A stretch of 64,000 bases of DNA from Candidatus Calditenuaceae archaeon HR02 (GCA_002898395.1 BEHE01000012.1:10818-74817), one strand, 5' to 3'; positions 41,569 to 44,282 are shown, counted from the first letter of the stretch. A program made the numbers and translations. Notes: a model not told the origin generated them from the sequence alone.

Positions 41569-42430
41569 GATTAGAGCCCCGCCTGCGACGATTCCCGAGA
41601 TACATGTCCTGATCCCCAGCACCTATTCCGAGGATGCAGCACATCTCCGAGAGAAGACGATGCGTATAGGCTTCCTCTTCAGGGCAATGACAATTTTCAG
41701 GGTAAGCCAGATGATTATCTACGAGGAACAGCCTGAAAGACCGAGTAAAAACTCGGAGTTGATCAAACTATTATGTGAATATCTCTCGACACCGCCATAC
41801 CTCAGAAAAAAGCTATACAAACTTAGACCAGAGCTAAGATACGCCGGGCTTCTACCCCCGCTTAACATACCCACACACCCTCCATCACCCATACCCCCCG
41901 GCGATGCATGGGAGCTCCGAGAGGGCTTATTTGAGAGGAGAGGCGAATTGACAATACTACATGCAGGCTTAAAGAAGCCCATCGTCTTAGAGTCTCAGAG
42001 ACGGTATGGGTCTCGGGTGTTACTGCTAGTTAAGTCACAGGGAAAAAAGATAAGGTTCAAGATCGCGCGCCGCGACGAGCTCCCTTACTACCTCGGGACA
42101 AAGATCTCAACCCACAAAGGTACACTCAAAGAAATTCTCAAAGGCTATAGATACTCGATCGCAACAGACAAGGATGGTGAGTCTATAATAGAAGTCTGGG
42201 ATAAGCTCAGCAAGGCCCTTAAAACTGTTAAAGGACCAGTGTGTGTAGCATTCGGCTCCTATAGGCGTGGATTGGCAGAAATAGCTGAGTTACAAAACTC
42301 GAGGCTAGAAGAGCTGTTTGATATCTGTGTGAATTTTATACCTTACCAAGGTGTGAGGAGTGTGAGGACGGAGGAGGCAGTGTACTCTGTCTTAGCACTG
42401 CTCAACATAATCTCCCTGTGTAAAGGATAG
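41531..42430 (+). CDS. SPOUT-family RNA methyltransferase (DUF171-like); start uncertain
   Basis: RAMTIFRV; TPPYLRK; YAGLLPPLNIPTH; NFIPYQGVRSVRTEEAV. Confidence 0.9.
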   Translation: MGRHSSDSSSTFRIRAPPATIPEIHVLIPSTYSEDAAHLREKTMRIGFLFRAMTIFRVSQMIIYEEQPERPSKNSELIKLLCEYLSTPPYLRKKLYKLRPELRYAGLLPPLNIPTHPPSPIPPGDAWELREGLFERRGELTILHAGLKKPIVLESQRRYGSRVLLLVKSQGKKIRFKIARRDELPYYLGTKISTHKGTLKEILKGYRYSIATDKDGESIIEVWDKLSKALKTVKGPVCVAFGSYRRGLAEIAELQNSRLEELFDICVNFIPYQGVRSVRTEEAVYSVLALLNIISLCKG

Positions 42431-42499
42431 CTCTCATTAGTCATGATAGTGATGCGATGTGGGGTTAGGCTTAACTCTAGGGGCCGCTCGGAGCATGTC

Positions 42500-43358
42500 A
42501 TGAGCGGGTTAGTCTGCGGTTTGGACGTTCATAAGAGATTCTGCGACGCTACGTTGGTTGACTGGTTTGGTAATGTGGTAGAGTCTAGGAGGCTTCCTAG
42601 GAATGAGCTTTGGCTGCTCATCCTAGGAAGACTAGGTTGATCGCTGAGAATAGGCTTAAGAGTGATAGGAGGGATTCTAAATGTTTGTCTTACATACCTG
42701 AGGGAGAGATAGCTAGGGTTAGGGAGCTTGTTAGGAGGAGGGCCTCCCTAGTTTAAGGATTAGGACTAGGCTGAAGAACAGGATAATAGCTACCCTAGCT
42801 CTAGAGGGCATAGAGATTCCTAGGGACTTCAAGTTATTCACCAGAAATGGATTGGATTAGCTAAAGTCACTGGGGATATCTTCCATAGACCAGTACCTAA
42901 GGTTGTTGGAGGGCCTAAACCAGGAGATAGGTCTTGTATCTAGGGAGCTAGACCAATACTCTAGCGATGAGGATGTTAGACTACTCATGACTATACCAGG
43001 AGTAGGATTGTACTCGGCATTGATGATAAAGGCTGAGATCGGTGACATATCTAGGTTCCCTGATGCTGATCATCTATGCAGCTACGCTGGCTTAGTCCCC
43101 TCCGAGAGGAGCAGTGGTGGTAAAATGAAGAGAGGTAAGATAACGAAGGAGGGCTCTAGGTGGCTTAGGTGGATAATGGTTGAGGTAGCGCATGTACACG
43201 TAAAATATGACACCCACTTCACCAGGGCTTATCATAGGATTGCTGCTAGGCGGGGTAAGAAGGTAGCTATAATAGCACTAGCTAGGAGATTACTTAGGTG
43301 TTGCTACGCGATGCTTAGGGATGGGAAGCCGTTCGTGAATCATGCTCAGGCCCGATAA
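42500..43358 (+). pseudogene. IS110 transposase pseudogene
   Basis: GLDVHK; KSDRRD; TIPGVG..AEIGDISRF..SYAGLVPSERSSG..ITKEGSRWLR. Internal deletion, frameshifts and stops between 42610 and 42860. Confidence 0.92.
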
Positions 43359-43478
43359 CTAAGCACGAGTATCGGACTGCGCCTAGAGCGCGGGAGCGTG
43401 ATTGTGGGGCCTGGTGGCGTGGTTGGTATGGTGCTCGTCTGAGGGCGTATAGGTGTTTGCCTTAAATAGTGGGATGGG
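43359..43478 (+). ncRNA. Candidate bridge/seek RNA region of the IS1111-type element
   Basis: Position matches the IS1111 non-coding region; local stems ccgata/tatcgg and gcgc/gcgc; internal copy of the IR (tgtggggcc). Confidence 0.45.
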
Positions 43479-43490
43479 CCCCACATAGGG

Positions 43491-43852
43491 TCCGGATAAG
43501 CATCTTTACCCACCCCCATTCCTAAAGGTTTGGTAGTATAGTGTGAAGAGGTTTAGGAATATGTTTAGGTTCTTTATTCCTTGTTAATAATCCCTTGCGC
43601 TCAGCTTGTTGTGGAACACTATTGTCCTCTCCTTGAGGTGCCTGAAGAACCTCTCTATCTTGCTCCTCATGCCGAACCTCTGGTGCTCGTGCTCAAGGCC
43701 TAGCCTCTCCAACGCCCATCTATACCAAGGACCCCTATAACCTCACGGCTTTTTTGTTGCGCTTGAAGCAGCTTGAGATCAGAACGACGACATCCACGCA
43801 GACGACCATCGAAGACCGGCCTTCAAATATATCCCCTTATCAGGACACTACC
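43491..43852 (-). mobile_element. IS6-family remnant A (internally deleted; its right TIR is split by the IS110, the outer 7 bp at 42445-42451)
   Basis: YRGPWYRWALERLGLEHEHQRFGMRSKIERFFRHLKERT; left TIR ggtagtgtcctgataagg (43835-43852). Confidence 0.85.
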
Positions 43853-44282
43853 GCTGTGGGAGGGTCTCTCAGGTACTTATCATGGGAGTTGAGCAGGTAA
43901 GCTGGTCAACCGTACACGAGCTATCTAGTGGGTACTGTCTATTGTAGCTATAGCCTCTGAGCCCAGGTATAGGAGGTGTATTGCCGTTAATGAGACTAAA
44001 CTCGGGGTGAAGGGGGCAGTAGTTTATGTATTGTCTGCAATCGATGTGGATTCCGGAGAATTCCTTGCTATCGAGGCGCCCTACGGGAGGAGCAGCCTGA
44101 ACGCCCTAACATTCCTTAAGTACCTGAACAGGCCTAAGATAATAGTGGATAGGGGGCTTCATATTTCACAACAAGCTAATCGCAAGAAAACATCAGGAGG
44201 GAATAAAGAACCTAACCTATTCGCAATATACTACAAAGCAATAAGAAACGGGGTGGATAAAGATGCTTAGCCGGACACTGTC
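43853..44282 (+). mobile_element. IS6-family remnant B (5'-truncated, internally deleted)
   Basis: RCIAVNETK..YVLSAIDVDSGEFLA..KIIVDRG; right TIR gcttagccggacactgtc (44265-44282). Confidence 0.85.

Follow-up and report, generated by a model that had tools for sequence, protein, structure and literature searches.

As Partridge and Hall reportedly described in 2003, IS4321 and IS5075, insertion sequences (ISs) of the IS1111 group, insert into the 38-bp terminal inverted repeats (TIRs) of Tn21-family transposons. For four other IS1111 members, ISEc11, ISKpn4, ISPa11, and ISXne4, a seekRNA has been demonstrated experimentally (Siddiquee et al., PMC11187229), and the bridge RNAs of IS1111 elements have been located in the right end (Durrant et al., PMC11208160). 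In the present study we analyzed a comparable element in a 64,000-nt stretch of Candidatus Calditenuaceae archaeon HR02 (GCA_002898395.1, BEHE01000012.1:10818-74817). The whole of this stretch, referred to as the window, is located on contig C12 of assembly G000 (1.73 Mb, 36 contigs). According to our analysis, the element at 42452–43490 is a dead IS1111-group IS, which was very probably inserted by RNA-guided DEDD recombination into the TIR tip of an IS6-family element.

The element, its ends and the split inverted repeat

The main features of the locus, in window coordinates, are the following.

42445–42451, plus strand: outer 7 bp (GATAGTG) of a split IS6-type TIR, comprising the left target and the core TG (42450–42451)
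42452–43490, plus strand: decayed IS1111-group (IS110-family) insertion sequence of 1039 bp, recognized by PF02371 and by its BLAST copies
42452–43358, plus strand: recombinase pseudogene in at least three reading frames
42457–42464, plus strand: left sub-terminal inverted repeat ATGTGGGG, 5 nt inside the element, with its partner at 43479–43486
43479–43486, plus strand: right sub-terminal inverted repeat CCCCACAT, 4 nt inside the end of the window copy
43491–43852, minus strand: what is left of the target, an IS6-type deletion derivative, with the inner TIR (TCCGGATAAGC), a C-terminal piece of the transposase, and at 43835–43852 the other TIR
43853–44282, plus strand: adjoining second IS6-type remnant, which finishes in an intact TIR at 44265–44282

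The element lies between GATAGTG on the left and TCCGGATAAGC (43491–43501) on the right, that is, between bases 7 and 8 of a TIR (GATAG-TG|TCCGGATAAGC). When joined, the flanks give GATAGTGTCCGGATAAGC, which matches the reverse complement of the intact TIR GCTTAGCCGGACACTGTC (44265–44282) at 16 of 18 positions; the chance of such a match at a fixed place is about 2e-8 by a binomial estimate. The joined 18-mer is found exact (18/18) and uninterrupted at three other sites of the genome, and with up to two mismatches at 16 uninterrupted sites, compared to 0.07 expected (a 17th match is the right junction itself). The homology continues into the IS6-type end, with about 71% identity between 43491–43616 and the inverted segment 44164–44279, and other IS6-type ends match too. 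On both points, the exact position inside the TIR and the continuing homology, the first-pass annotation of this DNA was confirmed.

On the minus strand, the deletion derivative is composed of 42445–42451 and 43491–43852. An intact IS6-family protein encoded on contig C2 (PF13610, 57 bits with a cutoff of 27; NF033587, 134 bits with a cutoff of 125) matched the window in a tblastn search with identities of 60% in an alignment of 48 aa and 51% in one of 67 aa (43593–43736 and 43971–44156); a Pfam search with the window IS6 fragments alone matched no family. Judging from these similarities, the target element is an IS6-family derivative. The IS6 family is characterized by short TIRs, a length of 0.7–0.9 kb, and an 8-bp target duplication. 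In the window, the TIRs are at least 18 bp long and the two remnants after the insertion jointly measure 792 bp; no target duplication was found at the flanks of the IS6 element itself, and a perfect 8-bp duplication (AAGCCAGG) surrounds one of the four MITEs (miniature inverted-repeat transposable elements) checked (C26:12200–12406). The latter belongs to a family of about 210 bp with the IS6-type TIR GATAGTGTCCGGATAAG, which is also represented at C14:2256–2463, C6:2336–2553, and C1:117283–117497 (uninterrupted).

The boundaries of the element are sharp. All ten left ends in the genome start with ATGCG(A/G)TGT and have differing flanks, and the three right ends outside the window finish with CCCCACATAGGTG, where the window copy has CCCCACATAGGG; the window element starts with ATGCGATGTGGGG and ends with GGCCCCACATAGGG. 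Outside the window, the three copies that have a right end show TG at both junctions (..GATAG-TG|ATGCG.. and ..CACATAGG-TG|TCCGG..), which is the “core” of this family; in the window copy, the right-hand TG is without its T. The earlier statement that there is no target site duplication is thus correct for an ordinary duplication, but has to be qualified for the core.

Assignment to the IS110 family was based on an N-terminal DEDD/RuvC-like domain (PF01548) together with a C-terminal PF02371 domain. The C-terminal open reading frame (ORF) of the window element (165 aa) scored 92 bits on PF02371; the ORF of the copy at C6:44965–46141 (C6 copy) scored 83 bits on PF02371 and 36 bits on PF01548; and P0001, an intact homolog, scored 260 bits on NF033542 (“IS110 family RNA-guided transposase,” cutoff 140). 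For the IS1111 group, we considered sub-terminal inverted repeats of 7–17 bp, a short left end, a long downstream non-coding region, the motif GL-P----S(t)G, a transposase of about 330–350 aa, and the order of the seekRNA guides. A further mark of the group is a guide RNA that co-purifies with the transposase and is required in transposition. The C-terminal motif, as defined in PMC11187229, is present as GLVPSERSSG in the window ORF 42903–43358. The inverted repeats ATGTGGGG/CCCCACAT are 8 bp each and lie 5 and 4–5 nt from the ends, 48 nt precede the conserved ATG, 132 nt (43359–43490) follow the stop codon, and the size of P0001 (330 aa) fits the group. By these features the window element is classified as an IS1111-group member of the IS110 family, in agreement with its first description.

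About a dozen copies and fragments were revealed by genome-wide BLAST. The copy at C1:120352–121526 (C1a), on another contig, represents another independent event at this very base of the IS6-type TIR: it is flanked by GATAGTG and TCCGGATAAGA, its inner flank runs on as the end of a ~210-bp MITE with the same TIRs, and its outer and inner flanks both differ from those of the window copy. The suggestion that the target is readable from the sequence was supported. A lone right end at C8:80532 adjoins TCGGGATTAGC and then sequence homologous to IS6-type right ends, which represents a variant IS6-type end. The flanks of the C6 copy are GGGCGTG and TCGAAAATTC, and joined they correspond to the uninterrupted 145-bp MITE C7:42810–42954; the left flank of the copy on contig C25 is GAGCGTG.

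The latter two copies concern a second TIR type, GAGCGTGTCGAAAAAT, which bounds an 882-bp element at C25:1893–2774 and has about ten uninterrupted sites in the genome; the insertion site is G[GA]GCG-TG-TCGAAAAAT. No Pfam family was matched by the 275-aa protein of this element itself; it scored 24.8 bits on the NCBIfam IS5 model (cutoff 140), and most of its homologs (35–45% identity) carry PF01609. The 145-bp MITE derivatives of this element include C7:42810–42954, which has a 9-bp duplication, and the element family also occurs at C13:6413–6557 and C13:26117–26599. A suspected fourth TIR type, GGTACTGTCTATTGTAGC, was rejected, the sequence being unique to the window.

Each of the four right junctions separates TIR base 7 from base 8, and the orientation is the same in all, with the right end toward the transposon interior. 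Three of the hosts are IS6-type ends (one of them a ~210-bp MITE), and one is the TIR of an unrelated, putative IS4/IS5-type (PF01609) element; the IS6-type and IS5-like TIRs have GA..GTG|TC in common. Among the 12 left-flank 7-mers (10 from the genome and 2 from relatives), 10 finish with TG and resemble TIR tips: GATAGTG (twice), TATAGTG, GAGCGTG, GGGCGTG, GGCGCTG, GGTACTG, GGATCTG, GATACTG, and GGCACTG. In the related genomes, the fragment in G038 is flanked by GATACTG and is truncated, with an IS6 transposase piece adjoining it, and the fragment in G024 is flanked by GGCACTG, with IS6-type pieces about 1.2 kb off. The proposal that the family parasitizes IS6 ends is supported, with limits: every right junction is in a transposon TIR, but not all of these are of IS6, two sister copies being in the putative IS4/IS5-type TIR, and the wider family (Bathyarchaeia, ~55% identity) uses unrelated targets.

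Two other explanations of this pattern have been considered. The order of events could have been reversed, with an IS6-type element inserted beside IS1111 ends, or the copies could be duplicates of a single junction-bearing segment. The area is rich in IS debris, and the IS6 family does hit IS1111-type elements (the IS6-type end GGCACTGTCAAC.. in the C25 copy); however, the far-side 7-bp tip and the inner TIR rebuild a full TIR in all three copies with both junctions, and duplication is at odds with the flanks beyond the TIR, which differ between copies, with the different kinds of host (IS derivative, MITE, other TIR type), and with an identity of only 77–91% between copies. This scenario is largely refuted, and we regard it as highly improbable. 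Just as little probability can be given to an ordinary IS110-family relic with a loose site preference, in which the recurrence would reflect the abundance of TIR repeats. Such sites are common (at least 16 uninterrupted of the IS6 type and ~10 of the second type), and four left ends (GGTACTG, GGATCTG, GGGTCTA, and TATAGTG) are unassigned to a transposon, yet TIR sites occupy less than 1 kb of the 1.73-Mb genome, and four of four right junctions are at one base and in one orientation. The junctions and their recurrence are direct observations, and insertion of the IS1111-group element into TIR tips is the reading that we retain.

Predicted guide RNA and its correspondence with the targets

The downstream non-coding region of the window element contains the following predicted features.

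43347–43413, plus strand: predicted target-binding part of a seekRNA/bridge RNA, with an outer helix (43347–43352 with 43408–43413) and an inner hairpin (43378–43383 with 43388–43393)
43370–43377, plus strand: predicted guide UAUCGGAC, complementary to the top strand of the right flank and pairing with G|TCCGG by five Watson-Crick pairs and one G-U pair
43394–43400, plus strand: predicted guide GAGCGTG, of the kind identical to the top strand of the left flank and core, here 5/7 compared to GATAGTG
43449–43456, plus strand: ATAGGTGT, a copy of the right end and core, probably a donor-side guide

The 3′ region of the element in the window genome aligns throughout to its Bathyarchaeia relatives. 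In the post-stop region of the relatives, a first variable segment is complementary to the core and right flank and is followed by CUGUCC; past the hairpin comes GGACG(U), then a second variable segment of 7 nt identical to the left flank and core, then AUUGAGGA. The two guides of the window copy overlap on the core G, and the first is located 5′ of the second. This guide order, the downstream non-coding region, and the sub-terminal inverted repeats agree with the IS1111 members described by Siddiquee et al. (PMC11187229).

The RNAalifold consensus contains four helices, in which, counted over 25 sequences, 99.4% of cells are paired and six pairs show compensatory changes. The covariation score was 0.276 compared to 0.159 in shuffles (none of 500 reached it), and slid partners paired in 32–48%, although the tested helices were derived from the same alignment, which favors them. 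A second helix seen by eye in Bathyarchaeia (CCUC with GAGG) was absent from the RNAalifold consensus and was not counted. The downstream GATAGTG in the C1a RNA was rejected as a guide, since it belongs to a structural stretch (..CCATAGTGCC..) that is conserved whatever the target group.

The correspondence of guides and flanks was evaluated in 24 elements with both guides and both flanks, the left guide being taken as the 7 nt before [AG]TTG. It matched its own left flank at 7/7 positions in 20 elements, at 6/7 in three, and at 5/7 in the window copy, with a mean of 2.63 of 7 in cross-group pairs. For the reverse complement of the 5′ guide, the longest run in its own right flank had a mean of 5.5 nt, compared to 3.1 nt across groups.

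The same relationship is visible within the genome. The guides of C1a are UAUCGGAC and GAUAGUG (left 7/7), with the target GATAG-TG-TCCGG; those of the C6 copy are UUUUCGAC and GAGCGUG, with the target GGGCG-TG-TCGAAAA, and UUUUCGAC is the exact complement of G|TCGAAAA; those of the C25 copy are UUUUCUAC and GAGCGUG. The window copy has a mixed pair, in which the IS6-type UAUCGGAC is combined with GAGCGUG, the version of the IS5-like-targeting copies. With this combination of an IS6-type right guide and an IS5-like left guide, it might represent a caught intermediate of natural reprogramming. The conserved fold and the guide-target correspondence are observed; from these sequences, the guides within genome G000 appear to follow their targets, which indicates natural retargeting. 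The prediction of an RNA-guided recombinase is supported to the extent that the 3′ segments match the target and change with it.

We therefore suggest the following course of events, in which the making and binding of the RNA and a circular intermediate are predicted steps. A living copy would produce a joint transcript of its gene and the 3′ non-coding region. This region would fold into a seekRNA/bridge RNA, and its internal loop would carry a stretch complementary to the right flank (top strand); another stretch, located more 3′, would be identical to the top strand of the left flank and the core TG. The recombinase-RNA complex would pair its guides with the TIR tip GATAG-TG-TCCGG (site GATAGTG|TCCGGATAAG), and the tip would be recombined with the circle junction of the excised element. 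The outcome would be TG at both junctions, no other duplication, and a single orientation. Sister copies with other guide letters landed at the equivalent base of the putative IS4/IS5-type TIR (G[GA]GCG-TG-TCGAAAAAT), and expression would proceed from a TATA-like box in the right end, which faces the left-end ATG only in the circle.

Alternatively, the recombinase protein itself could recognize the TIR tip (G....TG|TC or a transposon-end structure), and the 3′ matches would be incidental or relics of captured flanks. This is in line with GA..GTG|TC, common to both TIR types that were hit, and with the insertion of the window copy despite a 5/7 match in one guide. In contrast, relatives with ~55% identical proteins and the same end sequences use at least four unrelated targets, and the 7-nt segment copies each left flank; the fold whose loop contains the matching segments has been maintained by compensatory changes; and for bacterial IS1111 elements the requirement for an RNA of this kind has been demonstrated (PMC11187229). 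We consider recognition by the protein to be unlikely, and RNA guidance remains the preferred explanation.

Besides the dependence of the helices on their own alignment, several observations weigh against it. The RNA guidance proposed here was read computationally, and the guide RNA is a prediction from sequence. When single sequences of the 3′ region were folded, they did not outperform their shuffles (z from −0.1 to −1.6). A search of Rfam 15 over 42300–43700 with E values up to 10 gave only a chance fstAT match, so there is no curated family for the window RNA. The 3′ guide of the window copy matches its own left flank at only 5/7 positions, and the 5′ guide of the IS6-targeting copies is one base short of every TIR seen (UAUCGGAC compared to TCCGGATA). 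In the Bathyarchaeia element L052, which was outside the 24 due to the absence of a recognizable right end, the guide TAGCGCG matches the left flank CAGACTG at 3/7 positions. Two left flanks, GGTACGG and GGGTCTA, have no terminal TG, and four (GGTACTG, GGATCTG, GGGTCTA, and TATAGTG) could not be assigned to any transposon end. Finally, a diverged left-end fragment (C1:144104–144435) is located inside an IS6-type element and outside its TIR; its site at C1:144435, GGGTAC(T/G)G|TCTATTG, is a TIR-tip look-alike with no repeat elsewhere, and the fragment may be an off-target insertion.

Decay, expression features, relatives and host

The ORFs inside the window element are pieces of a single IS110-family recombinase in at least three frames. 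Compared to C1a, the window copy has lost about 103 bp near 42607–42611 (the DEDD-domain stretch with ..VAMESSS.. in C1a) and 33 bp at 42686 and has gained 2 bp at 42752, with smaller defects elsewhere; the fullest copies in the genome are 1175–1177 bp, compared to 1039 bp in the window. The C-terminal 201 aa of the window recombinase are 85% identical to P0001. The five longer copies in the genome are all broken: C1a (1175 bp) has two in-frame stops and reads as 329 aa when aligned, a frameshift is found in the C6 copy (1177 bp) and also in the C25 copy, the 3′ region of which is in addition severed by an IS6-type end, and a second copy on C1 is badly decayed. All copies in genome G000 are dead; an intact copy, which the first-pass annotation had proposed to look for, is thus absent from the genome, but an intact protein homolog exists (P0001, 330 aa). 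On C25:1–361 (loci L004 and L008), the IS6-type end (GGCACTGTCAACTTTTAC, GGCACTGTCAAC..) interrupts the 3′ non-coding region of the IS1111-type copy, and therefore the two element families have hit each other.

Two features may be related to expression.

42484–42507, plus strand: predicted hairpin CCGCUC...GAGCGG around the conserved start codon (ATG at 42500)
43462–43468, plus strand: TATA-box-like run TTAAATA, also present in C1a, in the C6 copy, and at C8:80532, with a putative promoter role

The hairpin was predicted in all four left ends that were folded, with differing stem letters, and may block the translation of read-through transcripts. Its stems are CCGCUC..AUGAGCGG in the window and GGCGCUCAU..AUGAGCGCC and GGCGUUCA..UGAACGUC in relatives (left ends L002, L028, and L046). 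The distance from the end of TTAAATA to the right junction is 23 nt in C1a, in the C6 copy, and at C8:80532, and 22 nt in the window copy, due to the loss of one base; at the loci of other genomes, 26 of the 28 right ends have an A/T run of at least 5 that stops 13–19 nt short of the right junction. An in-frame ATG begins at base 1 of the left end in the window clade and at base 6 in the Bathyarchaeia elements examined. In a circle, the box would therefore be about 22–24 nt upstream of the ATG, which is the spacing expected of an archaeal promoter driving a leaderless mRNA. This suggests a junction promoter for a leaderless mRNA, formed only in the circle. More tentatively, and with some doubt on our part, the clade may be a specialized “hyperparasite” that moves from the TIR tips of one IS family to those of an unrelated one by changing a single guide at a time, with the window copy as an intermediate of reprogramming and a leaderless promoter present in the circle only, which would be an archaeal counterpart of the junction promoter of bacteria.

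Among 3461 homologs found in the protein search, only P0001 (intact, 330 aa, 78% identity to the C6 ORF) and P0002 (93%) were close; the remaining ones had at most 61% identity, and one of them is named [quoted passage not shown] by NCBI. Eighty loci were collected from public genomes, mostly of Bathyarchaeia. In the Bathyarchaeia loci, the left end opens with ATGGTATGGG, the right end is CTTCACATAGG followed by the core CG or TG, and the flanks form the groups TAGCG-CG, (C/G)AGAC-TG, GTTGT-TG, and TCACC-CG. On the Bathyarchaeia contig L030, two 3′ regions of the family are about 2.8 kb apart; on L044, the left flank just ahead of the insertion point resembles the 3′ part of a tRNA gene (..GGTTCAAGTCCGGCTCGGCCCA..), a putative similarity. 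Fragments of the window clade were found in only one of 61 relative genomes (G038) and in only two of 401 genomes of the phylum (G038 and G024), the next best match having 53% identity. A metagenome scan with the left-end pattern gave no matches, and two matches to the right-end pattern were rejected as chance, with no recombinase beside them.

The host is archaeal and probably thermophilic, as had been proposed. Its 16S rRNA gene matched the archaeal model RF01959 with 1377 bits (C1:94997–97391, locus L137). The match spans 2395 bases compared to the 1478 positions of the model and therefore includes about 900 nt of intervening sequence; the flanking segments (exons) have 62–68% G+C in a genome of 51.4% G+C, and the central stretch with 41–53% G+C presumably represents one or more introns. 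A contig from a sequencing run labeled as a hot springs metagenome covers 42000–42570, across the left junction, with five differences. The contigs of run X1 cover the left junction and none joins across the element, so that no empty site or excision product was seen. Among the sequencing runs listed as containing the stretch, none is of RNA.

Comparison with known systems

The core dinucleotide of IS621 is CT. The predicted RNA of the window clade resembles the IS621 bridge RNA in that the guides are in an internal loop between helices, and both systems have a core dinucleotide at both junctions (TG in the window clade); in IS621, however, the RNA is located at the left end and its guides come in the opposite order (PMC11208160). 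ISEc11, ISKpn4, ISPa11, and ISXne4 share with the window clade the downstream non-coding region and a top-strand match 5′ of a bottom-strand match, with an overlap at the insertion point, and close relatives of theirs have been naturally retargeted by a change of the two segments. The targets given for them are REP, attC, and others, not IS ends (PMC11187229), and their seekRNAs are demonstrated, that of the window clade predicted.

The IS110-family elements of Bathyarchaeia (L025–L104) likewise have a left end starting with ATG, a right end ..CACATAGG followed by the core YG, an alignable 3′ RNA region, and proteins with 52–59% identity; they differ in a 3′ region that is about 100 nt longer and in their targets TAGCG-CG, CAGAC-TG, GTTGT-TG, and TCACC-CG, none of which is related to IS6 ends. 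Of the named ISs, the closest match was to the ISHvo10 family (Haloferax volcanii), with 96% of P0001 covered but only 37.7% identity. ISHvo10 is described as a diverged relative of the IS1111 cluster with long non-coding regions on both sides of the gene (PMC11187229).

A full-text literature search, judged from its result lists, revealed no description of archaeal IS1111-type elements in IS6 ends. The mechanism is already known; the new points are the second target family, the mixed-guide copy, and the possible archaeal junction promoter. One genome with two target types, two matching guide sets, and one mixed copy provides a compact natural example of guide-target co-variation. An interruption 7 bp into the TIR should make that end of the host transposon unusable, and therefore elements of this kind may influence the dynamics of ISs in the genomes of archaea. 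Intact relatives (of the P0001 type and in Bathyarchaeia) are a possible source of thermophilic or archaeal RNA-guided recombinases with sequence-readable targets.

The closest parallel in behavior is provided by IS4321 and IS5075, which, like the window element, have sub-terminal inverted repeats, occupy a fixed position and orientation in the TIR of another transposon, and produce no ordinary duplication. The window clade differs from them in its archaeal host, in its IS6-family and putative IS4/IS5-type IS and MITE targets, which are entered 7 bp from the tip, in a protein for which the plasmid collection contains nothing with 60% identity or more, and in the dead state of its copies. In bacteria, such TIR targeting is familiar from resistance plasmids (IS4321/IS5075 in the ends of Tn21); our results extend it to an archaeon from a hot spring and to targets of the IS6 and IS5-like types.

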